This document shows, one piece after another, positions 9,899 to 62,637 of a stretch of DNA of 64,000 nt. The stretch spans positions 1-64,000 of the forward strand of contig CAYLXA010000006.1 of NCBI GenBank assembly GCA_964387845.1, given 5' to 3'. The DNA comes from an uncultured bacterium (GTDB taxonomy: Bacteria > Omnitrophota > Omnitrophia > Omnitrophales > Abzuiibacteriaceae). The notes beneath the pieces were generated by a model that was not told the DNA's origin, did no database searches, and saw nothing but the letters and a program-made list of their open reading frames with translations. Within the stretch, counting starts at the first letter, position 1, and each line of letters starts with the position of its first letter. Made by a program: the position numbers and the translations under genes.

Positions 9899-9905
9899 TT
9901 CCTTT

Positions 9906-31434: not shown

Positions 31435-31444
31435 CTTCAATTTT

Positions 31445-32110: not shown

Positions 32111-32128
32111 TTCTCAAAAAGGATCCGT

Positions 32129-33106: not shown

Positions 33107-33108
33107 GC

Positions 33109-34053: not shown

Positions 34054-34072
34054 AAATCAGGAGTATGGGCTT

Positions 34073-42747: not shown

Positions 42748-44124
42748 TTAGGAAGAAATCTGGCGCTCTCTATTAAATGTCTTCAGGCGGGAAGCCAAAT
42801 AAATAACTGCGATGAACAGCCAAAAAGTCCGTTCCCTTAAATGACGATTGTACAGATAGCTGGGAATTAGGCAGATGAATCCAAACAAAATAACGGCGTG
42901 AAATTCTTCCCATGCTGTTCGACGCGAGAACCAGAAATTCTGGAATGCCAGGAATAGAAAATATCCCATGAATATCAAATAGGCCAATGTCCCGACGATT
43001 CCGGTTTCGGCAAGAAATTGCAAGAGAGTACTGTGCATTTCATATCCACGAATGGATACTTGATAATCGGATTGGATAAAGCGGCCGTACCCAATTCCAA
43101 GAGTTGGATGATTTTCAAAGCTGTGTTTGGCGGCATCGATTTGGTTTCCTATAAAACCCTTTCCGGAGGCGAGGGATGACATTTTCTTGACGTTGCGCAA
43201 AATCGAGTTTTGAAAAATCTGAGGATTTAAATAGCTCATGAGTGAAAAAACAAGAGCGCACACAATTGCAATGGAAGCAAAAAGCGCAGACGCTTTCGGA
43301 GATTTCTTGCACAGATACACGGTAATAACGAGAATCCCGGTCGCCAGACTGGGGAAAACGCTGAAGCGTGCGGTAAAAAATGCGCAGAGTATCAGCAGCG
43401 GGGCAATGATCCAGATTCTTAGGCGACTCTTAATGCTTTGACCGGGCGCGAAAGAGAAGGCAAATAGCGCGAAGAAAGTGGTGGTAGCAAATGCGGAAAG
43501 CTGGCCGGGGGTTCGGAATGGCCCCTGGATACGAAAACTGTGCGGAGACAAAAAGGAATTTGCAAATACGCCCGGATGAATGATGTCACCGATAGAGAAA
43601 AAGCCGGTTCCTTTTCCGATTTTCGGTGCTTGGTTAGATAAGTCACTCATATCGATCAAAGAAACCGTGATTGCAATGATGGCGGCAACAGTCCAAGCGC
43701 GCATGATCTTGAAAAAATCATCCTCTGACTGTGTGTGTTCGGCGATTAACAGGAAAAATAACATGCCGACTACAATGGCAAATGGTTGGCCTTCGCCATA
43801 GATCACTGCTTTAATGGTTGATTCGCTCAGAAGAGATAAAGAGATGGCTGATAGAAGGATCAGAAAAATCAATGACGGATAAAGCGGAAAAGAAAATGAA
43901 TCACGCAAAATGACTTTTCGAATTACAAAAACCAATAATAAGGTAAAGAGCAGAATATCGGGCAGGGCAATGCGGCCTAGAATTTCCCCTTTAAAAAAAG
44001 AAAGATTGATTAGGCAGATGGTTGAAATCCATAGATAAAGCAGCCAATTTGGATTTGAAATGCCTTTTGCGAAAACCCAAAGCCATGCCGCGCAGAGTAT
44101 CGCCAGGATAGCAAGGGTTAGCAT
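42748..44124 (-). CDS. Wzy_C/O-antigen-ligase-family polytopic membrane protein, paralogue of the 28014..29429 CDS
   Basis: 'EMHSTLLQFLAETGIVGTLAY' and the C-terminal 'YLYNRHLRERTFW' block shared with the other copy. Confidence 0.5.
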   Translation of the reverse strand: MLTLAILAILCAAWLWVFAKGISNPNWLLYLWISTICLINLSFFKGEILGRIALPDILLFTLLLVFVIRKVILRDSFSFPLYPSLIFLILLSAISLSLLSESTIKAVIYGEGQPFAIVVGMLFFLLIAEHTQSEDDFFKIMRAWTVAAIIAITVSLIDMSDLSNQAPKIGKGTGFFSIGDIIHPGVFANSFLSPHSFRIQGPFRTPGQLSAFATTTFFALFAFSFAPGQSIKSRLRIWIIAPLLILCAFFTARFSVFPSLATGILVITVYLCKKSPKASALFASIAIVCALVFSLMSYLNPQIFQNSILRNVKKMSSLASGKGFIGNQIDAAKHSFENHPTLGIGYGRFIQSDYQVSIRGYEMHSTLLQFLAETGIVGTLAYLIFMGYFLFLAFQNFWFSRRTAWEEFHAVILFGFICLIPSYLYNRHLRERTFWLFIAVIYLASRLKTFNRERQISS

Positions 44125-44127
44125 AAA

Positions 44128-45357
44128 TTAATGGCGTCTGTTTTGTTGAGTGATGATAGAAATCAATAGAACGCTCAGGCAAGACAGTAAAAAAGAGTTC
44201 GACAGTGATAATGCAATCGAAGAAATTAAAAAATCCCTTCGTGAGAAAACCACTTTTGGCTCGTCCATATTTTCAAATCTAAAAATTTTTGGCTTGGTAG
44301 ATTCGATTTCTTTGAAGAGAGAGTTTTGGCTTTCGGTGACGGCATTTTTATCCGCTTGAAGCGTGTCAAGCCGTGCTATCGTATTTTGCAACTCTGCTTT
44401 GGTATGCTGCAAAAACGATTTAAAAGACGAAGTGTGTGTGGCGAAGTTTATAGAAAGAGCCTCCGATATACTGATAAGCCCCTGGACCACAAGATTTAAA
44501 TTTGATTCCAAATCGTTAAGTTCTCGCCCTATCTTGGTTTTTGTAGCCTGTTCAAAATTTCGAAGCAATGTGCTTTCGGACTGATGATTTAACAAATGGC
44601 GGGACAATTGAATAGCGTTTTGAGCACTTTCCAAAACCTGCTTGGGATAATCGGTGCTCAAAGCTTTTAACTGAAGTTCAGCTTTAAGCAATTGATTGAT
44701 CAGTTTGTCGCTTTGTTCGGTCGTGACGAGCGAACGTTCTTTGAGATTGGCTAAAGTAGGTGCATTGAAACGGTTGAGAATTTCATTCATTTGCGCATCG
44801 ATTTCTTTCTCTTTTTGAAAAAATCTGGACTGTTCTGCCTTCAGTTCTTCAACGTAAAGTTTAAGATTTTCCAGCTCTTCCTCATGCTCCTGATAACAAA
44901 CCTCAGTCCACGCCTGTAAAACTTTTGACGCTATTTCTTGATTCGGATGCTGAACATAAAAGATGATCATATAAGCATTTACGTATTTGCCGTTTGAGGC
45001 CGGCATATTTCCAATGTCTTGGAGCTTAATCGAGATCGCATTGGATATTTGGCTGTTGCTGAGTTTGATATTTTGTTCTTCGAGTTTAAATCTTGTTTCC
45101 GTGATGATTTGGGGCTCGTGCAAGAAAAGGAGCCTGAGATTTAAAAGATGGGAGTAATTAATGTAAGCCATCTCGCTTTTTGCGAAATATTTTTTTTCTA
45201 ATTTCGGGCCTTTGAATTGATAAAACTGATACCCAAAAGAAAGAGCAAACGCGACGAAGGAGAGAGAAATGAAAAGGACTTTCTTTTGCCAAAAAAAAGC
45301 AATGAGTGTCCGTAAATCAATAGGATCTTGCAATTTCTTTGTCTCAAGTCTGTTCAT
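44128..45357 (-). CDS. Wzz/polysaccharide co-polymerase (chain-length determinant) family protein
   Basis: N-terminal 'IDLRTLIAFFWQKKVLFISL' + TM, a long heptad/coiled-coil periplasmic region, and a C-terminal TM. Confidence 0.5.
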   Translation of the reverse strand: MNRLETKKLQDPIDLRTLIAFFWQKKVLFISLSFVAFALSFGYQFYQFKGPKLEKKYFAKSEMAYINYSHLLNLRLLFLHEPQIITETRFKLEEQNIKLSNSQISNAISIKLQDIGNMPASNGKYVNAYMIIFYVQHPNQEIASKVLQAWTEVCYQEHEEELENLKLYVEELKAEQSRFFQKEKEIDAQMNEILNRFNAPTLANLKERSLVTTEQSDKLINQLLKAELQLKALSTDYPKQVLESAQNAIQLSRHLLNHQSESTLLRNFEQATKTKIGRELNDLESNLNLVVQGLISISEALSINFATHTSSFKSFLQHTKAELQNTIARLDTLQADKNAVTESQNSLFKEIESTKPKIFRFENMDEPKVVFSRRDFLISSIALSLSNSFLLSCLSVLLISIITQQNRRH

Positions 45358-46381: not shown

Positions 46382-47339
46382 ATATTTTGTATTTAATTTT
46401 TGGAATTATTTCTGGAGAATACCGCCGTTCTCTATTTTCTACCGGGCGTATTATTTATTTAGAGCCAGCTGGCCGGTGTGGTTTTATGTTTTAAACAAAG
46501 CGCCACGCGAGTATCATCGGAAGCATCGTTCAAATCTTAATCAAATCCAAAAGCGAACAGTGGAAGATTTAACGAGGTTTGGCATCGGTTCCGCTCACTT
46601 CAGCGACATGTTTCCCGAGCTGGATTTTTCACTATTTCAAAAGAGCCTGGCCGAAGCTATGTTGATAGGTGAGAACCAAAAACAAATCGAAGAACAGTCG
46701 AAAGGGCAAAGTGCCCAGAGCAAAAAATATTACCTGGTTGAATTATGGAAAAAGCCGTTTCATTTTGACTTTGCCAATCCGTTCATGTCCTTAGCTGCCA
46801 GCGAAAGAATTTTAACAATTGTGAATCATTACCTGGAAATGGCTGCGCACTTAAGTTATTTGAATTTATGGTATACGGTCCCCATGGAAAAAGCGGCGAA
46901 CTACAGTCAGCGCTGGCATCGTGATCCGGATGATCGAAGGTTGGTCAAATTATTTCTTTATTTAAATGATGTGGATGAAAACAGCGGGCCGTTTCATTAT
47001 GTTTCAGGATCGCACGATCAGGGCCCCCACAGAAATGTACTGCCTTCAAGGCCGCCTTATAGCACTTATCCGAAAGAAGGAGAGGTTGAGAAGCTGATTT
47101 CCAAAGATGATATACGCCAATGCACGGGCCGGGCCGGGACGCTTATTTTTTGCGATACCAGAGGGCTGCACAAGGGCGGGCATGCCACTAAAAATCCAAG
47201 GATTTTGTTTAATGCAGTTTATTTGACAGAAGGAGCCATTCCTTCCGAGAAAAGAAAAATTAATTACATTCTAAATCAGCCAAATCGCACGCATAATCCT
47301 CTAGCTGATTACGCATTAAGTTGGGCAGAATCTAGTTAG
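46368..47339 (+). CDS. PhyH-family Fe(II)/2-oxoglutarate-dependent dioxygenase
   Basis: 'RWHRDPDD' (HxD) ... 'NSGPFHYVSGSH' (distal His) in a ~320-aa protein. Confidence 0.55.
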   Translation: MEKIKYFVFNFWNYFWRIPPFSIFYRAYYLFRASWPVWFYVLNKAPREYHRKHRSNLNQIQKRTVEDLTRFGIGSAHFSDMFPELDFSLFQKSLAEAMLIGENQKQIEEQSKGQSAQSKKYYLVELWKKPFHFDFANPFMSLAASERILTIVNHYLEMAAHLSYLNLWYTVPMEKAANYSQRWHRDPDDRRLVKLFLYLNDVDENSGPFHYVSGSHDQGPHRNVLPSRPPYSTYPKEGEVEKLISKDDIRQCTGRAGTLIFCDTRGLHKGGHATKNPRILFNAVYLTEGAIPSEKRKINYILNQPNRTHNPLADYALSWAESS

Positions 47340-48030
47340 ACTTTTTACGTAAATATAGTTCCGCCAAAGCCAAATCAATTTTTGAATCAATATTAACAGA
47401 GCGTTCCACGGGCATGACGTAAGCCAGGCTTTTTTTGCCCCAAAGCGAGTGTTTTTTCATTAAAGTATCCCGCCGGACTGCATATACGGCCCCGTTTAAA
47501 GCAAATACGCGCGGCAAATCCTGACGCCTAATGCCTTCATGCCAGAATTTTGGCAGGAAAGGTTTCAAAGTCCCCTTATGAATTTGCATGGTTTTGCCCG
47601 GATGCGGATCCGAGATTTCGGAAACACTGATAACCGAATCAGCCTTTGAGTCTCTTAAAAGCATGATGGATCGATCGATGTCTTGCGAAGTTCTTAATGG
47701 CGCTGTGGGCTGAAGCAAAACAATGAAGTCATATCGACCTTGCTTTTTTTCCATAAAATTAACGGCATGTTTGAGCACGGAAAGAGAGCTGGCACGGTCT
47801 GTGGCGAGACGCGAGGGGCGAGTAAATGGAGTCACCGCGCCATATTTTCTTGAAACAGAAATAATTTTGGTGTTATCGCTCGAGACAATGCAATCGGTCA
47901 AGTAACGGCTTTTTTTCGCGGCTCTAATACTGTATGCGATAAGGGGAAGCCCAGCCAATGGCTTGATATTTTTCTTCGGAATACCTTTTGATCCGCCTCG
48001 AGCCGGAATAACGCCCAAAACCCTCAGCAT
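47332..48030 (-). CDS. CMP-nonulosonic acid synthetase (acylneuraminate cytidylyltransferase, NeuA family)
   Basis: 'VIPARGGSKGIPKKN' cytidylyltransferase P-loop. ATG at 48030 chosen; the upstream extension is unlikely. Confidence 0.75.
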   Translation of the reverse strand: MLRVLGVIPARGGSKGIPKKNIKPLAGLPLIAYSIRAAKKSRYLTDCIVSSDNTKIISVSRKYGAVTPFTRPSRLATDRASSLSVLKHAVNFMEKKQGRYDFIVLLQPTAPLRTSQDIDRSIMLLRDSKADSVISVSEISDPHPGKTMQIHKGTLKPFLPKFWHEGIRRQDLPRVFALNGAVYAVRRDTLMKKHSLWGKKSLAYVMPVERSVNIDSKIDLALAELYLRKKSN

Positions 48031-48992
48031 ATTGAAGGTACCTCGCGCTCTTCCCAATTGTAAATCACGTCTTTTCCGCAATGGCTTGCAAAACGGCCTC
48101 TGTAATAATTTCGGTTCAACAATTCCTCTTCACTTAGGCCGGGATTCTCAATTCCTATCATGCTTTCGTATTCAGCGGATGAAATCTCGGCATGGATTTT
48201 TTTATTCAGATTTTCACGAGAAAGTTTACAGGCGGCAGTAAGTTCTGAAAGCTGTTTCGGATTGATTGAAACCGGGCCGTCCCTCGTTTCTTCCGGCTTG
48301 AGTAAAGTAAAATGGCGTTCAATGACGGAAGCGCCGAGCGATATAGCGATAAAAGAAGCTTTTAGGCCATCTTTGGCGGGTGCGGAATGGTCGCTAAATC
48401 CAACGGATGGCGTAAATTGCAGAAGAAAATTCATTCTCCTTAAATTTAATTTATCCAGCGGTGTCGGGTATCGTGTTACACAATGCAAAAAACTAAATTT
48501 TTTATTTTTTAGAATAGATGCTGTTTTACGGATTTCGTCGTCATAAGTACCGCCCGTGGAAATGATCAACGAATCAAATTGTTCCGCAAGCTCGCGAATC
48601 ATGGGGAAGCTTGCGCAATCGATGCTTGCAACTTTGATAGTCGAAAATCCCAACGATTTTACAAGCGGGATTCGATGGCGCGAAAAAACCGTTGTGAGCG
48701 GAAGGATTTTGGCCTTTTGGCAGGTTTCGAGGAATATGTGGTGATCTTTTTCGGAAAGCTCTAGAGGCTTTAAACGGTTCTTTTCAGCCGCGCAGGGGCG
48801 TTTGATGATTTTCTGAATGCCATTTTCGATTTTTCCTTCTTCAAATTCAGGGCGATAAGTTACGTCATCTGCGAAAATGGTTTGAATTTTGGCGTAGGCG
48901 GCACCGTTTTCTTTGGCTGCCCACACCATCTCTTTTAGAAGGGAAATGCTTCCGTTATGATTTTGACAAAATTCGACAATAATTTCTGTCAT
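48024..48992 (-). CDS. nonulosonic acid synthase (NeuB/PseI/LegI family, PEP-dependent aldolase-like)
   Basis: 'EFCQNHNGSISLLKEMVWAAKENGAAYAKIQT' is a NeuB-family N-terminal TIM-barrel motif. Confidence 0.8.
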   Translation of the reverse strand: MTEIIVEFCQNHNGSISLLKEMVWAAKENGAAYAKIQTIFADDVTYRPEFEEGKIENGIQKIIKRPCAAEKNRLKPLELSEKDHHIFLETCQKAKILPLTTVFSRHRIPLVKSLGFSTIKVASIDCASFPMIRELAEQFDSLIISTGGTYDDEIRKTASILKNKKFSFLHCVTRYPTPLDKLNLRRMNFLLQFTPSVGFSDHSAPAKDGLKASFIAISLGASVIERHFTLLKPEETRDGPVSINPKQLSELTAACKLSRENLNKKIHAEISSAEYESMIGIENPGLSEEELLNRNYYRGRFASHCGKDVIYNWEEREVPSIC

Positions 48993-48997: not shown

Positions 48998-50167
48998 TTA
49001 GTAGGCGAGTTTCTTTTCGCTTTCAAGCTTGATGTCTGCCAAAATATCCGCGATTTTTTTGCCTGCGTTTCCGCGGCCGTAAAGGTAATCACGGGAATAA
49101 ACGCCGTGTTTTAATTGCTTCTGAATAGCGCTTTTGATTTTTGGAGTATCGTTCTGGACTTGAATGACGTTTCGGCCCATTTCGCGTCCTCCTTGGCGGT
49201 CTCCGATTGTGACAGCCGGAATTCCTAAAAACGAACCTTCGCGGATGGCCATGCTGGAATTGCCGACGATGCAAGCTGAATTAATTGCAAGCGAAAGAAA
49301 ATCTTCCGCAGGCAAGTTGCGGATAAAGTGCACATTGGGGATCTTGTTTTGTTCGCGGTAAAGCCTGATACCTTTAGAGATTTGATCAGAGCCGGCGTCG
49401 ACATTAGGCCAAAACCAGAAGGTAGGCATTCTAATCTCAGAAACAGCGTCCAATGTCTTTCTAACTTGGCTTAATCCCGATTGTTCTTGTGTGGTGACGG
49501 GGTGCTGCAGGACAATCAAATAGCTATTTTTCTTTGGTGTAAACATGGCGCCAACGCCCTTACGCATGACTGAATCCAAAGGCCGCGTTTTCCCCCTTGA
49601 AACATCCAACGCTAAATCAATGGACGGACAGCCGGTAAAAAAAACATTTCTTGGGTTTTCGCCCAATCGGATAATTCTCTTTTTTGCAAGCGCGGTCGAA
49701 GCAAAATGATAATTAGAAAGCTTGGTCACGGCATGACGTACTTTTTCATCGATGGAGCCCGTGATTTCACCGCCCTGGACGTGAGCAACGGGAATATTCA
49801 TATAAGAACCTGCGATAGCAGTTGCAATGGTTTCGTACCGATCAGCCACGGTCAAAACAATATCAGGTTTCAGATTGGAAAAAGCAGTAGAGAGTTCTAG
49901 GATGCTCAAGCCCGTTGTCTTGGACATTGTCACCAGGTTTTCCCCTTCCAAGACAGAATAAATTCGTTCGGCCACCCGGAAACCGTCTTTGACGATGACA
50001 TCAACGACCGATCCGAATTTTTCAAGCAATGCAGAAGCGCCCACGATGAGTTGGAGTTCAAGAGCAGGGTGCGCCTGAACCGCGCGTAAGACAGTCTTGA
50101 TTCTGGCGTAGCTAGCCCGGTTGGTGACGACAATCGCAATTTTTCTTTTTTGCTTCCTTTTTTTCAT
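48998..50167 (-). CDS. UDP-N-acetylglucosamine 2-epimerase (hydrolysing), NeuC family
   Basis: 'KIAIVVTNRASYARIKTVL', 'VAHVQGGE', 'GNSSMAIREGSFLGIPAVTIGDRQ' epimerase_2 motifs. Confidence 0.8.
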   Translation of the reverse strand: MKKRKQKRKIAIVVTNRASYARIKTVLRAVQAHPALELQLIVGASALLEKFGSVVDVIVKDGFRVAERIYSVLEGENLVTMSKTTGLSILELSTAFSNLKPDIVLTVADRYETIATAIAGSYMNIPVAHVQGGEITGSIDEKVRHAVTKLSNYHFASTALAKKRIIRLGENPRNVFFTGCPSIDLALDVSRGKTRPLDSVMRKGVGAMFTPKKNSYLIVLQHPVTTQEQSGLSQVRKTLDAVSEIRMPTFWFWPNVDAGSDQISKGIRLYREQNKIPNVHFIRNLPAEDFLSLAINSACIVGNSSMAIREGSFLGIPAVTIGDRQGGREMGRNVIQVQNDTPKIKSAIQKQLKHGVYSRDYLYGRGNAGKKIADILADIKLESEKKLAY

Positions 50168-51696
50168 GATCGTGTTTCTGAAACCGGCGCAGGCTCTCGA
50201 GTTTGATTTAAGTGAAAAGTATTTTTAATCTCAGCAAGTAAAGCTCTGGTAACATCCTTAACATTTTCCCAAGTGACCACATAAGGAACCGCGTAGGGCT
50301 GGCGCCGTGTTCCGGGGTGGCTGCCTTTGAAAAGAGCTGTGATGTATTTTAATAAATTTTCGCGGTTGGGGCGAAAATTTTTTAGAAGCTTTTGAATAAC
50401 GGAGGGCAGGTCTTTGATGTTTTCTAGATAAAAGGCGTTGTCATAATTTTTGTAAAAAGTGTCGCCAAGCACAACCAATGGCTTTTCAAGCAAGATAGCT
50501 TCCATCCCGATTGTATTGGATATGGAAACAATTAAAGAAGCGTTCTTCACTATATCAAAGCTTGGCAGCTGAGTATCTAAAAGTCTCACATTGTAAATGG
50601 AGCGCAGCCGGCGATATTCGGAAAGCGGTCTTCGGCCCAGAAAAATCGGATGGTCCTTAACGTAAAGTCTGTAGCCGGCCGGCAAACTTTTGCTGATATT
50701 TTCGATCACGGCGAGCTGATCGCAATAAAAGGGAGCCAAAATGAGCGTTGAGCGTTCGGGCTGTACTTGGAGCGGGTAAAAAATGTATTTTTCACCGGCA
50801 ACCGGTTTTTCGAAAAGATTGAGCGCTTTTCCCAGGTGGTGGCGGAACACGCGCGAAATTCTTGAGCGCACCAAATCCAAAAATTTCATCCGGCTGATAT
50901 CCAGTGGATCCGTAAAGTTATCCCAGCTGAAAGTAAATAAATTAATCAGTGCTTTAAAGCTGAAGTTGGGAACCTTGCTCCGTGTTTTTAAATAAAGCAG
51001 AGGTTCGTAATGATTGGTGTATTCGTGCAAGAAGGATTCGGCATGCTTTCTTTCATCGGTTGTTAATTCACGCGTCTTCAATTCCCGATAGGCAAGCTCG
51101 ACCGGTTCGCGTGAATCAAGGCAATCGTCATAAATCGAAAGGCGATGATTCAATTTTAAACTTCCCAGGGACCAAACGGGCACGCCTCGCTTTTTACCGA
51201 TTTTATAAATTAAATAGCTTAGCATGCAGCAAACGTCGTCCATGATAATCAAATCCGGCTGCTGCCGCTCAAGCGCCTCCTCCACAAAATGGATGCAAAG
51301 CTCCAGTGCACGCATGGCTTTATCATATGGCAGCTTTGAAATGTAACGGTCTGAAGAAATGTAAAAGGGTAGATTGGGGATGCCCAGTTCTTTTTCTTTT
51401 TGTTCTAAGAAGGAGAGGTCGTAGGGCGCCGACCAGTTTTTGGAGCGCAAATAATCCGTAAAAATACAGATTTCGTTCCAGGTCTTGTCTTGCTCGAGAA
51501 GTCTCTTGGCACTGATTTGTCCGTAAGAAATTCCTGAAAATTTTACAGATGGGATATCTTGACGCAGAAGTACGCTGATCCGCTGAAAGAAAATCTCATA
51601 AATTGATAAAAAGAAAGTAATTTTCATTAAATTGTCTAAAAGACCGCCCTTTAACTGGAAGGAAAGGAGTATAAACACAAAGATAAAACGCGTCAA
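50164..51696 (-). CDS. GT-B-like capsule-biosynthesis protein, KpsS/KpsC (Capsule_synth) family, or alternatively TagF-like
   Basis: 'YIFYPLQVQPERS' (cf. KpsC/KpsS 'PLQVxxDS') and a downstream 'YVKDHP' block. Family assignment is uncertain between Capsule_synth and Glyphos_transf. Confidence 0.45.
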   Translation of the reverse strand: MTRFIFVFILLSFQLKGGLLDNLMKITFFLSIYEIFFQRISVLLRQDIPSVKFSGISYGQISAKRLLEQDKTWNEICIFTDYLRSKNWSAPYDLSFLEQKEKELGIPNLPFYISSDRYISKLPYDKAMRALELCIHFVEEALERQQPDLIIMDDVCCMLSYLIYKIGKKRGVPVWSLGSLKLNHRLSIYDDCLDSREPVELAYRELKTRELTTDERKHAESFLHEYTNHYEPLLYLKTRSKVPNFSFKALINLFTFSWDNFTDPLDISRMKFLDLVRSRISRVFRHHLGKALNLFEKPVAGEKYIFYPLQVQPERSTLILAPFYCDQLAVIENISKSLPAGYRLYVKDHPIFLGRRPLSEYRRLRSIYNVRLLDTQLPSFDIVKNASLIVSISNTIGMEAILLEKPLVVLGDTFYKNYDNAFYLENIKDLPSVIQKLLKNFRPNRENLLKYITALFKGSHPGTRRQPYAVPYVVTWENVKDVTRALLAEIKNTFHLNQTREPAPVSETRS

Positions 51697-51785: not shown

Positions 51786-52496
51786 ATGTCTCAATTAGAA
51801 GAAAAGCTTAGCTCTACAGACGAACAGAAAAAATCCGGATTACGCCGCGGTTTTAAAGCAGTTATTGAGAGACTTAGCCCCGCGCTTCTTTGGCAATTAC
51901 GGCGCTGGACCTATCTCAAGAATCCCAGAGAATTTTGGGCGCGTGTCGGTCAGGACAAAGGTTATGAGAACCCAGGCCCTGAAGTTACCCGGATTCAGGG
52001 TAAATTTATTGCTGATAAGATCAAGCCTTTAGCTCCGCGGTCTGTGCTCGAGATTGGCTGTGGCTGGGGCCGTATTTTGGGAGTTGTTCGTGAAGAGTTG
52101 GGCGCGGATGTAAAAGTGGTAGGTCTTGATTTTGGGCACCCGCAAATCACAACGGCAAAGAGCCGGCTTGGCAATTCATGCGGATTTGTGGAAGGCAATG
52201 CAGCCAAACTGCCTTTCAAGGACAATAGTTTTGACGTGGTTTATACGATGGGCGTTTTTATGCATATCCCGCCGGAATTTATTGAATCTGCTTATAGCGA
52301 AGCTGTTCGTGTCAGCCGGAAATACATTGTGCATGGCGAAGACTTAAGCGGAGCCTATCATCGTTTTCGCTATGACCACGAAAAAGAATACCGAAGCCGC
52401 GGATTTGGCATTCAAACCTGTGAAGCACCTAAGCTTCTTCACGTAGACCCAAAAAAGATCCCGCAATTTTTAATCGTACAAAAAAAATCTGTTTAG
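51786..52496 (+). CDS. class I SAM-dependent methyltransferase
   Basis: Motif I 'VLEIGCGWGRILG', 'VVGLDF', 'VDVVYTMGVFMHI'. Confidence 0.6.
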   Translation: MSQLEEKLSSTDEQKKSGLRRGFKAVIERLSPALLWQLRRWTYLKNPREFWARVGQDKGYENPGPEVTRIQGKFIADKIKPLAPRSVLEIGCGWGRILGVVREELGADVKVVGLDFGHPQITTAKSRLGNSCGFVEGNAAKLPFKDNSFDVVYTMGVFMHIPPEFIESAYSEAVRVSRKYIVHGEDLSGAYHRFRYDHEKEYRSRGFGIQTCEAPKLLHVDPKKIPQFLIVQKKSV

Positions 52497-52513
52497 AATT
52501 AAACAGATTTTTT
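52481..52513. terminator. AU-rich bidirectional hairpin terminator between convergent genes (A6-ATCTGTTT-agaatt-AAACAGAT-T5)
   Basis: Perfect 8-bp inverted repeat flanked by an A-run on one side and a T-run on the other; overlaps both stop codons. Confidence 0.45.
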
Positions 52514-54184
52514 CTTGGCCGCAATTCTTAAAACTTTTTCCAGCCATTCGGATAGAAATTTCTGATCCAAAGAACTCTCAAGATTCAGTTTAGTCGTGGC
52601 AATGTCTTTGCTTGCGGAGGGGTCGACTTTAATGCGCTCGTGCAGCCTTCTGACCAAGGCTTGCGCAAAACAAAACTGTAGAAGCAGCAAAAGATGTTTT
52701 TTTGTTTCTTGATTCCATGTGCATTTAAAATATGAAATGTAAGCACCAAACCAATCGGTGACCCAATCGGCTTCGAATATTTTCTGAACCGGGTTTTTGC
52801 ATGCTATATGGACTAAGTCATATAGAAAAAATTCGTGCTTTCGGACACCCTCGAAGTCCAGTATGAAAATTTCTGAATCCTGAACTCCGCCAAATGATAA
52901 ATTTCCGCCAGAGATAATATCGCCGTGCACTGCAGTTCTTAGATTGGCGGCGTTTATGAATTTTGTTTTAAAGTATGTGCCCGCGATCTTGAGAACGGCT
53001 TTGAATGAAATTGTCTTTTCCAGGCATAGCAACAGCAGGCGCTTTGCGAAATCCAAACCAAAGAAAAATCGATCAAAGCGCTCAATCCATGTGACTGGCT
53101 CTTGATTAACTCGAGCTTGAAATTCAAACAATGCATCCAAAATTAATTTTTGAGATCCGGCTGAAAGGTTGGAAATATTTTCACGGTTGCCGATCGGATG
53201 CAGCTTCTCGTAGAGGGTGGTGTACTTGAAAAAAGAGTCAGACTGGATTCTGAGAACGCGAAACGTATTTGGTTTTGGATTTTGCAATGCTTTGAGGGTG
53301 TTTTTGTCTTTCAAAAATTGAAAAATATTTTTAGGACTTAAATTTCGTATTTTTTTAACCACAACAGTTCCGGCGTCCGATGTTTTTAAGGAGACATTGC
53401 CCCGCGATGTCCATGCTTTGTCCCACTGTTTGACGCTGAATGCTACTAAAATTCTTTCGCTAAGCATGTTAAAAGGAGCGATCAGCATGAGTCGTTCCAG
53501 GTGTGGTCTTGTTTTGGGAAACCACTTCATTAAGCTTCGGAATCCCGGACACCACGTGCCGCTTACCGCTTGAACTTCCAGAAAAGGGAATTGCAATTTC
53601 CATGCGAACGGGACCGTTTTTCTTGAAAGATAATCTTTTTCTGTGAAAGTCTTAAAAATAGTCCTGAAAAAAGTGCGTAAATTCAAAAAATAAGATGCGT
53701 TGATAAATTCTATAATGATAATGCCGTCAGCTTTTACAACCCTGGAAAATTCTTTAAGGCAAATTCTTTTTAATCGCAATGGGATCAAATGAAAGAATCG
53801 ACAGGATAGAACAATATCAAATGCCTGTTTTTGAAAGGGTAAATGCTCGGCGTCACCCTGAATTAAAGGCAATGGCGCTGACAAATTTGCTTTTGCTTGC
53901 ATGAGCATCTCATAAGCATAATCAAGTCCAATTATTTTCTGTGCACGGCTTTGAAGGAGATTTAGATTTCTGCCCGTACCGGTCGCAATGTCCAAAATCT
54001 TCTGTTTTGACAAGTCTGTGTAACCAAGAGATTCCAGAAGTCGAAGCGTCATCCGATTAGTTTGTTCAAGATCAAACAAACCCTTTTCATCACTGTAGCG
54101 TGCTTGGTGGTAAGAAGCCGCAATCATTTCATATTTTTCTTTTAGGTGCTTCTTACGGCTCTGCGGAGTTATTTCGGGTATCAT
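52499..54184 (-). CDS. bifunctional methyltransferase + protein-kinase-like (APH/WaaP-fold) phosphotransferase fusion, WbdD-like
   Basis: N-terminal SAM motif I 'ILDIATGTGRN'. C-terminal kinase motifs 'VVKKI' (beta3 Lys), 'HGDIISGGN' (catalytic loop), 'ILDFEG' (DFG-equivalent). Helical C-terminal tail. Confidence 0.5.
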   Translation of the reverse strand: MIPEITPQSRKKHLKEKYEMIAASYHQARYSDEKGLFDLEQTNRMTLRLLESLGYTDLSKQKILDIATGTGRNLNLLQSRAQKIIGLDYAYEMLMQAKANLSAPLPLIQGDAEHLPFQKQAFDIVLSCRFFHLIPLRLKRICLKEFSRVVKADGIIIIEFINASYFLNLRTFFRTIFKTFTEKDYLSRKTVPFAWKLQFPFLEVQAVSGTWCPGFRSLMKWFPKTRPHLERLMLIAPFNMLSERILVAFSVKQWDKAWTSRGNVSLKTSDAGTVVVKKIRNLSPKNIFQFLKDKNTLKALQNPKPNTFRVLRIQSDSFFKYTTLYEKLHPIGNRENISNLSAGSQKLILDALFEFQARVNQEPVTWIERFDRFFFGLDFAKRLLLLCLEKTISFKAVLKIAGTYFKTKFINAANLRTAVHGDIISGGNLSFGGVQDSEIFILDFEGVRKHEFFLYDLVHIACKNPVQKIFEADWVTDWFGAYISYFKCTWNQETKKHLLLLLQFCFAQALVRRLHERIKVDPSASKDIATTKLNLESSLDQKFLSEWLEKVLRIAAKKKSV

Positions 54185-55239
54185 AATTTGCGCGCTTTTA
54201 GATTGGTAAATTGAGGGGAGTGGTGTATTAAAAAATTCCGAAGAATGGCCGCGACAGCTCGATGGCCATTGCGTGTCAGGTGTCCGTCTTTTTGGTAGTA
54301 AAGAGTCTGCGTGTCAGGAAGTTTCTTCATTTCTGGTGTTAAATCCAGAAAAGGAATCTTTAGTTCGTGAAGCCACGCCGCTACCGTTCGGTTCGGCTGT
54401 CCCAAATCATACAAAAGATCAAAGTTTGCAATTTGATTTGCAAGTTCAGCTTGGTCATCAGATTGCACCATGGTTTTATACGGGATCAAAACAACAAGAA
54501 GGGGGGTATTGATTTTCTTGGTTTCTTCTACTAATTCTGCCGTCAGAGTTTTAGAATATTCGTAATCTCTTTGAGCTGTTGGCGATAAATTTTTTGCTGT
54601 TAGTGCCAAATATTCATCCGGCAGTTTCCATTTTTGATTGACCCGGCGAAAAAATAGACGATGTCTCAGTATTTTTAGCAATGTAACGATTTTAATATCA
54701 CGGTGGCTTCTTACCGTCGGGCGATCAGACGAGGCGATGTTGCCATTTTTTCTTTCCCAGCGCCAGTTACCAACCAAGTCATTGCCCAGGTAAAGCATGT
54801 AAATAATAAGATCCGGCGAGTATTTCTTTCCGTAATGTTTTAGCCATTGCACTTGATGAATTAAATCAAACCCGCCTGATGCCGTGTTTAGAATTTCAGT
54901 GCCCAATTGCCGTTCAAGCAAATCTGCGAATATGAACGGGCGATCGACGCCGTAACCAAAGGTGAATGAATCGCCGAGAAGGACGATGCGCGGCCCTTGT
55001 TTTATTTGAATCGGATCATCGCGGAACCCGTCTTCGTTTGTCGTAATGGACACATCGTATTCGCTTGATACCATGCGTTGATCGAGTTTAGGCGCGTAAT
55101 GAAACCCGGTGTGGGGATCTGATTCCCACGGGGACCAGCTCTTTTTTGGATAATTAATGAATTGAAGGCCCGCTTCGGACAATAAAAGCACAATCAAGAT
55201 AGAAGCGAAGAGTAATAGTATTTTCTTAAGAATATCCAT
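54181..55239 (-). CDS. membrane-anchored SGNH/GDSL-family hydrolase/acyltransferase
   Basis: N-terminal TM; 'IVLLGDSFTFGYGV' block I; 'DGHLTRNGHR' block V. Confidence 0.55.
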   Translation of the reverse strand: MDILKKILLLFASILIVLLLSEAGLQFINYPKKSWSPWESDPHTGFHYAPKLDQRMVSSEYDVSITTNEDGFRDDPIQIKQGPRIVLLGDSFTFGYGVDRPFIFADLLERQLGTEILNTASGGFDLIHQVQWLKHYGKKYSPDLIIYMLYLGNDLVGNWRWERKNGNIASSDRPTVRSHRDIKIVTLLKILRHRLFFRRVNQKWKLPDEYLALTAKNLSPTAQRDYEYSKTLTAELVEETKKINTPLLVVLIPYKTMVQSDDQAELANQIANFDLLYDLGQPNRTVAAWLHELKIPFLDLTPEMKKLPDTQTLYYQKDGHLTRNGHRAVAAILRNFLIHHSPQFTNLKARKL

Positions 55240-55339: not shown

Positions 55340-56287
55340 ATGATCTATCCGGAACATAAAACAGCTGCTGTTGTTTTTTCGATTGATGATATTCATCCTG
55401 CGTCTTCCATAAATGGTTACGAAGCGGGCGGTGATCTTGCGAAGGGTGTTTTGGGCCGGCTTCGGCAGCTTACTGTCGAGCATTCCGATTTTTGTGCCAC
55501 CTTGTTTGTTACCGCCGATTGGCGCGCGAAATCACCTTACCCGAATCTGCAAAACCGCATTTTAAACTACATTCCAGGAATGGGCGCGCACTTCGGCGCT
55601 CTTCCGCAATGGCCGGAAGGCTTTATGAGTCTTGATCGGCACCCTGATTTTGTTTCTTATCTTGACACTATTCCCCGGATCGAAATTGGCAGCCACGGCC
55701 TTACGCATGTGGGGTTGGGAAAAAATTTGATACGGGAATTTTTAGGGCTTTCTGAAAATGAAATTAGAAAACGTGTGAGTAAAATCGCCCAGATTTTTCA
55801 AAATGCGGGCTTGAAGAAACCTGCAGGTTTTTGTCCGCCGGGCTGGGGTTATAATGAGTTGTTATTGAAAGTAATTCCAGATTTCGGATATTCTTATATT
55901 GCCTGTTCGCGCGATTTAAACACGCCGATTAAAAGAGATGCTGTTTGTAATGAAAGTGGCATCAAAAACGTTTCTCTTGTGAACCCATGTTTTTTACCGG
56001 GTTCAAAAATTGTTCACATTCCGTCAAATTGGAGTGTCACGTGCAATTTGGACCGCGCTTATCAAATTATTGAATCGGGCGGCGTTTTATCAATCAAGGC
56101 ACATGCCGTTAAAAAAATGGGAACTTATGTGAGTGCCGATGGTTTAGATGATGCTTGCCAAAATTATTTGAGCAAACTATTTCATTCCTTAAAATCCCGT
56201 TTCGGCAACTCGATTTGGTGGACAACTATGAAAGAATTGGCCGTCCGATACCGCGACTCGCAATTTTCACATGCAAATTCTTCTTAA
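55340..56287 (+). CDS. polysaccharide deacetylase-like (NodB/DUF2334-like) protein
   Basis: 'AAVVFSIDDIHP', 'IEIGSHGLTHV' NodB-type motifs. Confidence 0.45.
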   Translation: MIYPEHKTAAVVFSIDDIHPASSINGYEAGGDLAKGVLGRLRQLTVEHSDFCATLFVTADWRAKSPYPNLQNRILNYIPGMGAHFGALPQWPEGFMSLDRHPDFVSYLDTIPRIEIGSHGLTHVGLGKNLIREFLGLSENEIRKRVSKIAQIFQNAGLKKPAGFCPPGWGYNELLLKVIPDFGYSYIACSRDLNTPIKRDAVCNESGIKNVSLVNPCFLPGSKIVHIPSNWSVTCNLDRAYQIIESGGVLSIKAHAVKKMGTYVSADGLDDACQNYLSKLFHSLKSRFGNSIWWTTMKELAVRYRDSQFSHANSS

Positions 56288-57233
56288 TCCCTCCACGAGC
56301 GCTGAAGAGTATATTCAATGCGCGGATGCTTGTTTCGGAAATTGGGGCGGCCGGCCTATGTATGAGTGGGTGTTCAACCGGCAAGTCGGTCCCATCCCGT
56401 CCGATCGTTTTGTTTTGGTGCGCGATGGTAAAATCGCCGGCGGAAGCGCGTTAACTTTCAGGCCTCTAAGGACTTCAAAAGGCAAATTAATGCAAGCGGC
56501 CGTTATCACCGGTTCATTCACTCTGCCAAATTTTAGAAAGCAGGGATTTTTTTCTACCATCATTGATTTAACTTTTAAGAGGTCTATTGAATTAGGGGCA
56601 TCTGTTTATCTTGGTTTTGCAGCAGCCAAGAATATGAGCGTGAACCGGTTGTTGGAGGCGGGCTGCGAAATTCTGCCAAGCCATTATTTTCAATTCAATA
56701 CCCAAAGTGCAAAGCAAACAGACTTTCGGATTCGTGTTTGCAATGTTGATGATTTTGATGCTCAAAAAAGGGCGTTCAATATTCGGTCAAAGCGCATGAA
56801 AGGGAAAAGCCATTTTGAATATTCGTTGGACGAATGGAAGGGGCAGATGATTAACAGGCCTCACCCGACTTTTTTATGTGAAGTTTTTGATGATCGTAAA
56901 AATTTGGGTTATTTTGTGACGAGCGATATTGAGGAGAAATACCGTTTGATTGAATTTTTCGCAGAAGATGAATCGTTTGATGAAAAAATTGTTTTGGCTG
57001 CTATTAATTATGCTCGTCAGTTTACGCAAGTCATAGATGCCTATACGATTGAAGCCAATACGCATAGAATTTTCCAGAATTGCCATGGCTATGAGATATC
57101 GGGATTATTATTTTTGAGAGCTTGCTCCCAGGGCGCAGACAGATCGCTCACACGTGCTTATTTGGACCAAGATCCAGCGCGCACGCAAAGCAGTTTATTG
57201 CCGTTTGCTTTTACCTCAGGCGATAGAATGTAA
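56271..57233 (+). CDS. GNAT-family N-acetyltransferase-like protein
   Basis: 'FRKQGFFSTIIDL' resembles the GNAT motif A (Q/R-x-x-G-x-A/G); ~320 aa with two lobes. Confidence 0.4.
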   Translation: MQILLNPSTSAEEYIQCADACFGNWGGRPMYEWVFNRQVGPIPSDRFVLVRDGKIAGGSALTFRPLRTSKGKLMQAAVITGSFTLPNFRKQGFFSTIIDLTFKRSIELGASVYLGFAAAKNMSVNRLLEAGCEILPSHYFQFNTQSAKQTDFRIRVCNVDDFDAQKRAFNIRSKRMKGKSHFEYSLDEWKGQMINRPHPTFLCEVFDDRKNLGYFVTSDIEEKYRLIEFFAEDESFDEKIVLAAINYARQFTQVIDAYTIEANTHRIFQNCHGYEISGLLFLRACSQGADRSLTRAYLDQDPARTQSSLLPFAFTSGDRM

Positions 57234-57318
57234 TTTGAATTTGTTTTGGAAAAATGAGTTTTTTTCCGAATGTATTTTAGGATATTTATCATGAAACTTG
57301 AAACTAGTAGAGGCTAAA

Positions 57319-58290
57319 ATGATCCAATCTCAGGCTTTCGATTACTCAAAGGAAAAGCTGGAATATGTGAATTGTAATTTTTGTGGATCTGACAATTATT
57401 TAATTTTGAGCAAGAAGGACCGTAATGGTTTAGATGTTAGAATGTGCATATGCAAATCTTGCGGGCTTATGTTTTTGAATCCCAGGATGACCCGAGAAGG
57501 TTATGATCTGTATTATCAGCAGGAATACCGTTCTCAAATGGAAAGACTTAAAATCAAAGAAAGTTCCAGAGATGATAATGTTTTATTTGAAAGAGGGAAA
57601 AGGGCAGGAAGGGAAATATTCAAACTTCTTGGGAAATATTTAAAAGATGGTATTACCATCGATGTGGGTTCTGGTACGGGAGGAATCTTGAAAAGTTTTC
57701 AAGAGCTTAACCCCGCTTTAATTCCTGTAGGTATCGAGCCTTCATCGTCAGCAGCTGAGTATGCCATTGCACATGGCGTAAAAACGTACACTTGTTTGTT
57801 TGAAGATTTCTCAGAAAATCTCGGCTCGATTTCTAATATTATGAGCATGAGAAATTTAAATCATTTATTGGATCCAAAGGCTTTTTTAGCTTGGGCTTAC
57901 CAAAATCTCTCTGACGATGGGCGGCTTGTTTTGTTGGTGCAAAATTTTCGCCACGCATCAAAGGATCGAGGAAAAATGATCTCTCAAGTAGATCATTGTT
58001 ATTATTTTGTTCCTGAAACTATCATTCCGCTTCTTAAACATTCCGGATTTGAAATTATTTTTTTTGATAATCCAGACGATCAAGGAATTTACAGTGTTTT
58101 AAAAAAGAAAAAAGCAGGACTGCCTGCAAGTATGAAAATTGTTGCAAAAAAGGTTGTCAAAAAGTATTTTTCTGTGAACGATCAAAAAATAGCCGGCAGC
58201 ATTTTAAAATCGTTTTCTCCCATTAAATTAAAAGTAGCAAAAATAAAATATTTATTTAATCATGCTATATTAAAGTACTTGAACTTCTAA
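57319..58290 (+). CDS. class I SAM-dependent methyltransferase with an N-terminal C4 zinc ribbon
   Basis: 'CNFCGS...CKSCGLMF' zinc ribbon; motif I 'ITIDVGSGTGGIL'. ATG at 57319 with a GAGG RBS preferred over the TTG at 57298. Confidence 0.6.
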   Translation: MIQSQAFDYSKEKLEYVNCNFCGSDNYLILSKKDRNGLDVRMCICKSCGLMFLNPRMTREGYDLYYQQEYRSQMERLKIKESSRDDNVLFERGKRAGREIFKLLGKYLKDGITIDVGSGTGGILKSFQELNPALIPVGIEPSSSAAEYAIAHGVKTYTCLFEDFSENLGSISNIMSMRNLNHLLDPKAFLAWAYQNLSDDGRLVLLVQNFRHASKDRGKMISQVDHCYYFVPETIIPLLKHSGFEIIFFDNPDDQGIYSVLKKKKAGLPASMKIVAKKVVKKYFSVNDQKIAGSILKSFSPIKLKVAKIKYLFNHAILKYLNF

Positions 58291-58449
58291 ATGGGCCAGA
58301 GACAGCCACTCTATCACGAGCCCGTTTAAGCTTGACTTCTTGAGGCCCCTTCCCCATAATAAACTTCTAAAATTAGCTAATTTTAGCTGTTGCAGTTCAA
58401 AGGAATATAAGGGGAATAACCAAGTTATTTTTAGGTTTTTATTTAATTA

Positions 58450-59454
58450 ATGCTATTACATACGACTGCTAGATACATATCACGAAGATTATACTCTCAC
58501 GTATTTGCCAAGACTCCTCAGACAAAAGCGTTGTGGTGGTCATTCCGCGAGCATGTCCTGAATCGTTTTATACGGGGCGAGACGATCAAGGTTGAACTTT
58601 CCGCTAACTGCAATGCGCGCTGTTCGTTTTGCTGGATGTTTCAATCCGAAGCTAAGCCGGCAGGATTGATGACGCTGGAGAATTTCAAAAAATTTATTGA
58701 TATCAATAAAAACGATTTCAAAAAGCACCGGACGCACATCCAGCCGTTTTTTAACGGGGAAGCGCTGGTCAATCCGCATTTTTTTGATTTTATCGATTAT
58801 ATTGTCGCCAACAAAATTCCTTTGGCCCGTCTGGATACCAACCTCGGCGTGAAGCGCGATATGGATAAATTGATGAGCTATCCGTGGCCTGTCATTTGCG
58901 TCAACATCGGAGGAATCACAAAAGAAGTGCACGAGAAGGTTATGAAGACGAGATGGGAAATTGTAACTGAGAACTTGAAACGAATTTTACAAATCGACAA
59001 GAGCCGCGTGTTTATCAAAGCAACTCCGGTGAAGATTAATCTTCATCAAATTAAATCATTTCCACAATTCATGAAGGAGATGGGCGGCGACCCGGATCGT
59101 GTTGAATTTGGGACGACGGGTTTTAATATTCCTGCTGAAGCGACTGATCAGGAAATCGTGGATTATTTTAACGAGGTTGTTTCTCCGGAGGTTAACGAGC
59201 ATTTGCGATTTACGTATGATCTCTCGAAGCCCCGTTATGATATCAAAGCCAAAAGGCCGGGATGTCATTTTTTAAATGACTGCGTCACGTTTGATGGCAA
59301 GTTGACCATTTGCTGTCATGATCAATTGGGAAAACTCAACGTAGGAAACAGTTTTGAAACTCCGCTTTATGATCTGAAGAAATCCAAGAAGTATCATGAT
59401 TTTCGTCTGGCAGGCATTGATCAAAAGTTTAAGATGTGCAAAGAGTGCAATTAG
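58450..59454 (+). CDS. radical SAM protein with a C-terminal SPASM-like Cys cluster
   Basis: '[12 protein letters not shown]' (CxxxCxxC). C-terminal 'CHFLNDC...CCHD...CKEC' cysteines. Confidence 0.55.
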
Positions 59455-59566
59455 TCGTTCAGTTTTTCCAGTTTCCCGCCCGGTTCGTATCACATTCGAA
59501 ACCATCAGCAATGCTAAAGAAAGGTTGGTCGGCAGCGTGAGTGCTTTTTGGAAAAAACACAGGGTC

Positions 59567-60508
59567 ATGGTTGCGGGCGGCAGCGGCTTTTTGGGGTCTT
59601 ATGTTGTAGAGAAGATTCGTCAGCGTGGTTGCCGGAATATTTTTGTTCCGCGATCTTCTGTGTATGACTTGCGTGAAGAAGCTCGGGTCCGCAAAGCCTT
59701 CCAAAAGTTTAAGCCAACGCTTGTCATTCATTTGGCTGCGGTTGTGGGAGGGATTGGCGCTAACCGGAAAGAGCCCGGCCGGTTTTTTTACGATAATGCG
59801 GTGATCGGCGTGCATTTAATGGAGCAAGCCCGGCTCTCAAAAGTGAAAAAGTTTGTTGCAATCGGTACTATCTGCGCTTATCCCAAATTTTGCCCCGTTC
59901 CATTCAAAGAAATTAACCTGTGGAATGGTTATCCGGAAGAAACGAATGCGCCGTATGGGCTGGCGAAGAAAATGCTTTTGGTCCAAGCTCAAGCCTATCG
60001 CGCTCAATATGGATTTAATGCCATCTACCTTTTGCCGGTCAATCTCTACGGCCCGCGCGATAATTTTGATTTAGAATCCGGCCATGTTATCCCGGTTTTG
60101 ATCCGAAAATTTATAGAAGCGAAAAGAAAGAATAAAAAAGAAGTCGTTTTGTGGGGCAACGGCAGCCCGACGCGGGAATTTCTCTATGCGGCAGATGCGG
60201 CGGAAGGTATTTTGCTTGCAGCCGAGAAATACAACAAACCCGATCCGGTTAATTTAGGTTCCGGTAATGAAATTAGTATTTTGGACTTAGCTCGTTTAAT
60301 TCAAAAACTAACAGGCTATAGAGGAAAGTTGATTTGGGACAAAACCAAGCCGAACGGCCAGCCGCGCCGATGTCTTGATGTTTCTCGGGCAAAACGAGAA
60401 TTTAATTTCAAAGCTGCTGAAAAATTAGAAGATGGATTGCGCAAAACAATTCAATGGTACCAACAAAACCGAGAACCCATCCTTTTTAATCGTAAAAATT
60501 CCCGTTAA
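59567..60508 (+). CDS. fcl: GDP-L-fucose synthase (GDP-4-keto-6-deoxymannose 3,5-epimerase/4-reductase, Fcl)
   Basis: ATG at 59567 ('[11 protein letters not shown]' Rossmann). 'YGLAKK' catalytic YxxxK. The upstream extension to 59396 is rejected. Confidence 0.85.
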
Positions 60509-60510
60509 TA

Positions 60511-61896
60511 ATGTTATCCAACCACCAGTCTTCCGAAAGGGATCTTTCCCAGAGATTTGGCAGAAATAAAACCAATGAAATTAGCCGTCTCATTTATGAA
60601 ATCGGGAGGCGGGAAGGGCTCGCATCGGATGAAGTCCTTAATCAAGCGCTTCAAGCCATCTCGCCGGCTGCGACTCTAGAATCTGTCGCCTTCGCTTCTC
60701 TTAAGAAAGCGCTTCTCAAACGCCGCTATCCCAGTTTTTCGGAAGAAGAGTTTTCCAAAATTTATTTTGCGCCGCTGCGTTTTCCGGAAAGTCGGGAAGA
60801 GGCCGATCCTCAAACAAACGATTTTCGGCCGGATGAAATTGTCATCGCACGGCATGCCAAAAATTTTCCACTCACGAAACGAATCACGAGTTTTTGGCCC
60901 GAAGTTCCCGTCCGCGAAATTGAATCGCTGGATGAGTTGCGAAGGCCCAAGAAAGAGTGGCTGGGCGATTTCGGTAAAAAGCGAATTGCGATTTCCAACG
61001 AACACTTTGATTTGGTCAAACCGTGCCCCTGTACGGCGAATGCCTGTTCCTGCAATTATCATGTCCTCAACATTGGCTACGGCTGCCCGTACGATTGCAC
61101 CTATTGCTATCTGCAGGATTATCAAAATCTGCCGGCCATTGTGCTGCCGGCTGACCTGGAACCATTTTTAAACCAAATGGGCTCAGTTCTGAAGCAAAAA
61201 CCGGGATTTTTTACACGTATCGGCACCGGCGAGTTTGCGGATTCTTTGGCACTCGATTGGCTGACGGAATATTCCAAAACCCTGGTTCCGTTTTTTAAAA
61301 ATAAGCCGGTCATTCTGGAGCTGAAAACCAAAAGCGATTGCGTAGAAAATCTGCTAGAACTTGATCACGGCGGCCGTACGGTGATTGCGTGGTCCGTCAA
61401 TCCCGAGCGCTTTTCTAAGGAAGAAAAAAGAACAGCGCCGGTTCATAAGCGCCTTGAAGCTGCGCAGCTTTGCGAAAAAGCCGGCTATGGAACGGCTTTC
61501 CATTTTGACCCGATCTTACAAGCTGCAAATTGGGAAGAAGATTATCAAGATTTGGTCCGCGATTTATTTAATCATGTAGGCATTTCGTTGCGTTGGATTA
61601 GTCTGGGAACGCTGCGGTTTCACAAAGACTTGCGCGGCGTCGCCGAATTCAGGCATCCGGACAGCGAAATTTTCTTAGGAGAGCAGCGTTTGGATGTTTC
61701 CGATCAGAAAATGCGGTATGCGGATGAAGCCAGAGTCTCTGTTTATCGGAAAATGATTTCTTGGATCAAGCAGTTCAACGAAAAAGTTCCGATTTATTTA
61801 TGTATGGAACCGCCCGAAATTTGGAAAACCGTCTTTGAGAGCAAGCCCTATCAGGGAAGGATTGACAGCTGGATTGCGCACGGTTCAGCGCGTTAA
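60511..61896 (+). CDS. SPL (spore-photoproduct-lyase)-family radical SAM protein with a ~150-aa N-terminal extension
   Basis: 'GCPYDCTYCYLQDY' matches the SPL-family CxxxCxYCYLQ cluster motif; 461 aa. Confidence 0.5.
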   Translation: MLSNHQSSERDLSQRFGRNKTNEISRLIYEIGRREGLASDEVLNQALQAISPAATLESVAFASLKKALLKRRYPSFSEEEFSKIYFAPLRFPESREEADPQTNDFRPDEIVIARHAKNFPLTKRITSFWPEVPVREIESLDELRRPKKEWLGDFGKKRIAISNEHFDLVKPCPCTANACSCNYHVLNIGYGCPYDCTYCYLQDYQNLPAIVLPADLEPFLNQMGSVLKQKPGFFTRIGTGEFADSLALDWLTEYSKTLVPFFKNKPVILELKTKSDCVENLLELDHGGRTVIAWSVNPERFSKEEKRTAPVHKRLEAAQLCEKAGYGTAFHFDPILQAANWEEDYQDLVRDLFNHVGISLRWISLGTLRFHKDLRGVAEFRHPDSEIFLGEQRLDVSDQKMRYADEARVSVYRKMISWIKQFNEKVPIYLCMEPPEIWKTVFESKPYQGRIDSWIAHGSAR

Positions 61897-62489: not shown

Positions 62490-62637
62490 CTGTAAACTCC
62501 CCCAAATTTGAAGAGCGTACCATAGCTTCCGGGATCTGTAAAGGAAGCCATCCGTGTTTAAAGTTTATGATTCAATTTCCCGTATAATTCTGTAAAATAC
62601 GTTCTCGGCGTCTTCATTGGTCAAATACGGAGAAAAC

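Follow-up and report, generated by a model that had tools for sequence, protein, structure and literature searches.

The 64,000-nucleotide stretch analyzed here, called the window throughout (positions 1 to 64,000 of contig CAYLXA010000006.1 from an uncultured Omnitrophota bacterium), encodes a protein in which a class I S-adenosylmethionine (SAM)-dependent methyltransferase is fused to a C-terminal domain that its structure model places in the APH/choline-kinase family (kinases of small molecules and sugars), as a new branch without annotation. This fusion is very rare and known only from metagenomes. It is encoded in a large polysaccharide locus, and the function we favor, with even chances of being right, is that of a glycan-directed kinase and methyltransferase tailoring a Wzx/Wzy-assembled surface polysaccharide that contains nonulosonic acid (NulO). 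Methyl phosphate as the specific product is a more tentative proposal. Equally tentative is the wider idea that the fusion marks a third, independent origin of the methyltransferase-kinase architecture, this time on a full APH-type kinase, and that it places methyl phosphate (or a phosphate plus an O-methyl group) on the NulO repeat unit of a Wzx/Wzy pathway.

The two domains and their relatives

The first-pass annotation, made from the letters of the DNA, had described a SAM methyltransferase with the motif ILDIATGTGRN fused to a kinase of the APH fold, and this description was borne out by Pfam, by the AlphaFold2 fold and by the motifs, which lie at the implied positions. Residues 64-158 match Pfam Methyltransf_11 (PF08241) with an E-value of 1.4e-18 and 67.7 bits for a curated cutoff of 21.2. 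This score, a Gly-rich motif I and a Rossmann-like fold identify a class I SAM-dependent methyltransferase. NCBIfam adds only generic matches below threshold, e.g. BioC and UbiE, and Foldseek aligns the domain with 2avn, 4htf and 3l8d (E 1e-9 to 2e-10; TMt 0.68-0.74 to 2avn and 4htf). The substrate-side half (about residues 190-252) has no counterpart among solved structures.

A search of the PDB also returned phosphoethanolamine methyltransferases (PMTs) over positions 60-244, and structure 2qg7 tops the Foldseek list of the kinase domain. These matches suggest a head-group pathway in which the kinase would phosphorylate a small alcohol, ethanolamine- or choline-like, and the methyltransferase would methylate it, for instance from phosphoethanolamine to phosphocholine, for later attachment to the glycan. 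We consider this pathway unlikely. Generic methyltransferases outscore the PMTs, and the latter are no longer recovered with residues 107-254 as query, where only the SAM-core segment matches anything; the similarity is therefore confined to the SAM core, and no residue-level feature supports the pathway. Moreover, no LicC-/LicD-type gene or other head-group transferase was found in the window, whose only cytidylyltransferase is NeuA/PseF-like.

The kinase half escapes sequence models. Residues 230-561 match nothing in Pfam at E<=10, the APH family model (PF01636) does not recognize the fusion at its gathering score, and neither phmmer nor five-sequence profile searches of PDB sequences gave a kinase match for this half. 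Two stand-alone relatives, P0008 and P0009, show weak, sub-threshold Pfam APH matches (E ~3e-3, 18 bits for a cutoff of 23.2) covering Pfam positions 171-223, which is exactly the segment of the catalytic loop and the DFE motif. In alignments of the close homologues, Lys277, His420-Gly-Asp422, Asn428, Asp443-Phe-Glu and FFLYD456L are invariant; the Asn stands at Asp+6 in the fusions, as opposed to Asp+5 in the stand-alone relatives, which have the canonical HGDxxxxN. AlphaFold2 models built from family alignments reached a pLDDT of 76.5 for the full-length protein, and a pLDDT of 86.4 and a pTM of 0.86 for the C-terminal domain alone. The order of secondary structure elements is that of a protein-kinase-like fold, the strand bearing Lys277 being followed by a long helix, more strands and a helical lobe in which HGD and DFE lie on either side of a small beta-hairpin. 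The C-terminal helices (residues 492-520, 525-539 and 541-560) are covered by the alignments to APH-fold kinases, and the protein ends at residue 561. The model displays the bilobal fold with APH-type helical C-lobe of the APH/choline-kinase family (PF01636, protein-kinase-like clan), and the catalytic residues of this family (beta3 Lys, HxDxxxxN and metal-binding Asp) are present, the spacing of the Asn being the deviation.

Among 5.8 billion proteins, the fusion has four other full-length homologues (69-38% identity) and an identical database copy. A profile of the C-terminal half searched against 1.84 billion cluster representatives added the fusions P0006 and P0007 as well as P0008 and P0009, and this exhaustive search yielded no further credible member beyond about nine proteins. 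The other known fusions number six and are 69-23% identical to the window protein. A scan of genome contigs revealed no new locus, its sole return being an unrelated archaeal methyltransferase, and a scan of metagenome contigs re-found only two already known loci. The catalytic residues of both the SAM and the kinase site are all strictly conserved in the window protein and five other fusions, at identities as low as 37%, an argument for catalysis having been retained.

Genomic context

The polysaccharide locus spans about 17 to 61 kb of the window, as delimited by Pfam and NCBIfam scans of essentially all open reading frames (ORFs) of at least 120 amino acids. It encodes a GDP-mannose dehydratase, a GT2, an AsnB-like amidotransferase, a PglF-like dehydratase, a DegT aminotransferase, two Bac_transf initiating transferases, several GT4s, two sulfotransferases, deacetylases and GNATs. 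Of the Wzx, Wzy and Wzz proteins announced by the first-pass annotation, Wzx and a Wzy-like protein were found; the third has only a weak candidate, a 409-residue product encoded directly upstream that may be a divergent chain-length determinant. Relatives' locus L002 carries the same trio, with a 401-residue unannotated gene in the Wzz position. Other Wzy-like proteins are encoded at 28014-29429 and by the N-terminal part of 23044-25575. No ABC transporter domain was found in the scanned ORFs of the 64 kb, nor in the relatives' loci L002-L005 or L011.

The ATG of the fusion gene and the stop codon of the SGNH gene upstream of it share the sequence ATGA, and the stop of the fusion is 2 nt from that of a convergent small methyltransferase gene (52494-52501), a gap with no room for terminators between the two. 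The SGNH gene lies directly upstream in the window, L002-L004 (P0002), L005/L006 (P0004), L007 (P0003) and L010 (P0006), with overlapping genes in four cases (the window, L002-L004, L005 and L007); in L008 (P0005) an overlapping gene fragment takes this place. The convergent methyltransferase gene occupies the same position in L005; in L006 and L007 the contig end truncates it to gene fragments. The window, L002-L005 and L011 (P0007) share a gene for a PF05159 (KpsS/KpsC-like) glycosyltransferase that follows the fusion within one or two genes, as well as NeuB and NeuA genes alongside the fusion.

The PF05159 protein resembles the KpsC structure 6mgd only weakly (E 1.4e-5), and its best NCBIfam match is the BFO_1060 glycosyltransferase family. 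The ORF call opens with a TTG at 51696; a 62%-identical homologue aligns from Met24, and translation more probably starts at the ATG at 51627. Papers about nonulosonic-acid transferases of Tannerella forsythia mention BFO_1060, which we take to be such an enzyme. The KpsS homologue KpsS1 of Acinetobacter baumannii is said to operate in a Wzy-type capsule locus. This GT118 enzyme, 30% identical to KpsS, was experimentally shown to be a pseudaminic-acid transferase (PMC12887879). Given this precedent and the adjacent neuCBA genes, the KpsS/KpsC-like neighbor noticed at first pass is indeed present and is best read as a NulO transferase instead of a sign of the ABC pathway; the protein is a probable ulosonic/nonulosonic-acid transferase of the Wzx/Wzy locus. 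Another reading is that of a precursor kinase, similar to NahK or ManNAc kinase, which would phosphorylate a free hexosamine or NulO intermediate and so feed or divert the NeuC/NeuB/NeuA route, the monosaccharide being methylated before activation. We hold this to be improbable.

In L011, the locus that tells most, the PF05159 protein is 62% identical to that of the window over 470 residues while the adjacent fusion P0007 (10001-11686) is only ~23% identical. P0007 is a double pseudo-enzyme that has lost methyltransferase motif I (LDFSQNCEQ), the QGDAE segment and the kinase Asp, Asn and Asp (HGN, S, NFE). The conservation of the transferase next to decayed sites indicates that it does not need the catalysis of the fusion, and the loss of both active sites together is the pattern expected of two steps in one dispensable modification. 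P0007 nevertheless keeps its full length and position, as would a non-catalytic scaffold organizing the PF05159 transferase and its partners with vestigial enzyme-like folds, and a scaffolding role is also documented for WbdD, the methyltransferase-kinase of Escherichia coli O9a (PMC11231755). Since catalytic residues are strictly conserved in the six other fusions, we give a pure scaffold hardly any credence.

Locus L013 encodes the stand-alone P0009 four genes from a methyltransferase-PF05159 pair, whose PF05159 protein is specifically related to that of the window (42% over 134 amino acids, E 4e-30). At 1176-5335 (+), this locus carries a MsbA/PglK-type fused ABC transporter gene, then the methyltransferase and PF05159 genes, and may represent a variant of this module that uses an ABC flippase. 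Its unfused methyltransferase was considered as a Rosetta-stone counterpart of the fused domain and rejected, the similarity being generic (E 0.001 over 49 amino acids). A 438-residue neighbor of the fusion in L010 was likewise rejected as a divergent PF05159 protein, with no similarity and no Pfam match. In the glycan locus of L011, 1926-7385 (-) encodes a 1819-residue protein with metallo-beta-lactamase/beta-CASP domains between NeuA and a DUF2334 protein.

Several other parts of the window deserve mention. The 23044-25575 gene (+) encodes an 843-residue fusion of a Wzy_C/O-antigen-ligase-like membrane domain (residues 213-363) with a GT4 (residues 466-806), an architecture that recurs (848 amino acids) in the P0006 locus L010 (13444-13790, a gene running off the locus end). 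At 30571-34969 (+), two sulfotransferase genes surround genes for a Bac_transf protein, a 325-residue protein consisting only of a pyruvate-kinase barrel and an unannotated 314-residue ORF, a possible sign of a sulfated glycan or of an unusual step using phosphoenolpyruvate. The 55340-61896 block (+) encodes DUF2334 deacetylase-like, GNAT, Methyltransf_23, radical SAM/SPASM, NAD epimerase and spore-photoproduct-lyase-like radical SAM proteins, and its synteny with the fusion extends to L002/L003 and, in part, to L010. The first 16 kb hold menaquinone (futalosine-type), Fe-S and LpxD genes, including UbiA, a UbiX-like flavoprotein, MqnA-like, MqnC-like radical SAM and UbiE genes at 6470-10601 (+); the futalosine genes, LpxD and a type II secretion system (T2SS) pseudopilin indicate a diderm host.

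Table 1. Coordinates of the fusion gene, its motifs and neighboring genes in the window (res, residues; KD, Kyte-Doolittle hydropathy)
Feature	Position	Strand	Basis or remark
Methyltransferase-kinase fusion gene	52499..54184	-	ORF call, 561 aa, soluble
N-terminal class I SAM methyltransferase domain	53429..54184	-	res 1-252; Pfam core res 64-158
SAM-binding motif I, ILDIATGTGRN (res 63-73)	53966..53998	-	kept in 6/7 fusions, lost in P0007
C-terminal APH/choline-kinase-fold kinase domain (res 255-561), predicted	52502..53422	-	unannotated family
VVVKK	53351-53365	-	motif located in translation
Lys277, predicted beta3 ATP-binding lysine	53354..53356	-	invariant in 7/7 fusions; strand 272-278 of model
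Catalytic loop HGDIISGGN (res 420-428)	52901..52927	-	Brenner-type motif, one extra residue between Asp and Asn
DFE (res 443-445), predicted Mg-binding Asp (DFG equivalent), then FFLYD(456)L	52850..52858	-	alignments
SGNH/AlgX-like protein, N-terminal membrane anchor	54181..55239	-	ALGX E 3e-13; anchor KD 2.58 at res 7-25
Small convergent class I methyltransferase	51786..52496	+	weak TIGR03587 'pseudaminic acid biosynthesis-associated methylase' match
PF05159 (KpsS/KpsC-like) glycosyltransferase	50164..51696	-	Pfam; resembles KpsC weakly
NeuC	48998-50167	-	TIGR03568 370.6 bits, above cutoff 235.9
NeuB-like synthase	48024-48992	-	NeuB/PseI matches below cutoff
CMP-NulO synthetase (PseF/NeuA-like cytidylyltransferase)	47332-48081	-	PseF match below cutoff
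Candidate Wzz-like, 409-aa ORF upstream of Wzy and Wzx	44128-45357	-	PF02706 sub-threshold, E 0.004, res 13-46
Wzy-like candidate	42748-44124	-	Pfam/NCBIfam scan
Wzx	41393-42718	-	Pfam/NCBIfam scan
LpxD	15067-16173		
T2SS pseudopilin	62617-63054		

Proposed reaction and its meaning

No transmembrane segment is predicted in the fusion (maximal Kyte-Doolittle 19-mer of 1.48). It would act as a soluble enzyme at the cytoplasmic face, on the undecaprenyl pyrophosphate-linked repeat unit or on the NulO residue provided by the PF05159 transferase, and the most likely target of the kinase would be the ulosonic-acid residue added by this adjacent transferase, or the neighbor of that residue. The APH-type domain would transfer the gamma-phosphate of ATP to a sugar hydroxyl, with Lys277 to orient ATP, Asp422 as base and Mg bound by Asn428 and Asp443. 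The methyltransferase would next methylate the same substrate, either on the new phosphate, giving methyl phosphate as do WbdD and ORF6 of Klebsiella pneumoniae O7, or on a nearby hydroxyl. Once Wzx has flipped the unit, O-acylation outside the cytoplasm could fall to the membrane-anchored SGNH partner. Polymerization by Wzy proceeds by addition of new units at the reducing end, and a mark present on each repeat can therefore not act as a WbdD-style terminator; carried by every repeat unit, the modification would be a decoration and not a chain-length cap. In this Wzx/Wzy context, the sugar decoration that the first-pass annotation had offered as its fallback holds.

To our knowledge, the sole role of methyl phosphate on bacterial glycans is that of a terminal 'stop and export' signal in ABC-transporter-dependent O antigens, and the makers that we know of are two unrelated methyltransferase-kinase fusions. 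A literature search combining nonulosonic acid, APH and methyltransferase found no paper, and one on methyl phosphate and Wzy surfaced only WbdD structure work, a review of E. coli O antigens and two papers that each touch on the subject once in passing. Should our proposal be true, a third lineage in a Wzx/Wzy and nonulosonic-acid context would mean that the methyltransferase-kinase architecture arises repeatedly, and methyl phosphate would serve as an ordinary decoration of each repeat unit and not as the export signal that ends a chain. The C-terminal domain would then represent a new, unannotated family of sugar kinases that partner with KpsS-like (PF05159) ulosonic-acid transferases. The fusion is a testable candidate both for a third origin of the architecture and for nonulosonic-acid glycans that carry a phospho/methyl decoration. 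For annotation, 'methyltransferase + kinase' or 'KpsS-like' are unsafe as markers of the ABC pathway in glycan loci.

Comparison with known systems

WbdD (E. coli O9a and K. pneumoniae O3; PDB 4azs, 4azt) shares with the fusion a glycan locus and an N-terminal class I methyltransferase followed by a kinase, an order that the first-pass annotation had pointed out and that Pfam and the structure model confirm. The annotation had gone further, to WbdD homology and a hallmark of ABC-dependent assembly: a methyl phosphate cap at the non-reducing end would set chain length and license ABC export, in a hybrid or dual strategy combining ABC and Wzx/Wzy. Such a terminator could draw on the common domain order, the nearby KpsS/KpsC-like gene, the position of P0009 four genes from the MsbA/PglK-type ABC gene, and Foldseek, in which 4azt is the sole PDB entry aligned over both domains (542 columns, E 2.8e-7). 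It is nonetheless very improbable. The kinase of WbdD is a Src-like eukaryotic protein kinase domain, to which that of the fusion, of predicted APH/choline-kinase fold, is not homologous; WbdD residues 460-708 form a long C-terminal coiled-coil molecular ruler with a membrane/polymerase-recruiting end, and the fusion has no such ruler; the Wzm/Wzt ABC exporter that goes with the WbdD type is missing from all the loci scanned for it; and the polymerization logic of Wzy opposes a cap. The fusion shares only domain order with WbdD and is not related to it, although WbdD may be a chemical analogue, with phosphorylation first and then methylation of the phosphate.

The terminator ORF6 of K. pneumoniae O7, compared here by description, has the same methyltransferase-then-kinase order. 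Its N-terminal methyltransferase-kinase was shown experimentally to form a sugar 3-O-methyl phosphate, and the nearest solved structure to its unannotated kinase is the APH-fold kinase AmiN (PMC11231755), which shows that APH-like kinases can perform methyl phosphate chemistry. ORF6 also contains a carbohydrate-binding module, a coiled coil and C-terminal GT2 modules, whereas the 561 residues of the fusion comprise two domains only.

The nearest known family remains that of the APH/choline kinases, represented by NahK (4ocj), corramycin kinase (8agy), YtaA (2q83), AmiN (6sum) and LicA (4r77). From these solved members the fusion differs by its low identity (8-15%), its extra catalytic-loop residue, its attached methyltransferase and its escape from Pfam detection. 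In the lipopolysaccharide core, finally, a kinase of protein-kinase-like fold phosphorylates a sugar freshly added by a neighboring (ulosonic-acid) transferase, as illustrated by WaaA with the Kdo kinase KdkA and by WaaP (PDB 6dfl), and the same logic is proposed here for the fusion and its PF05159 partner.
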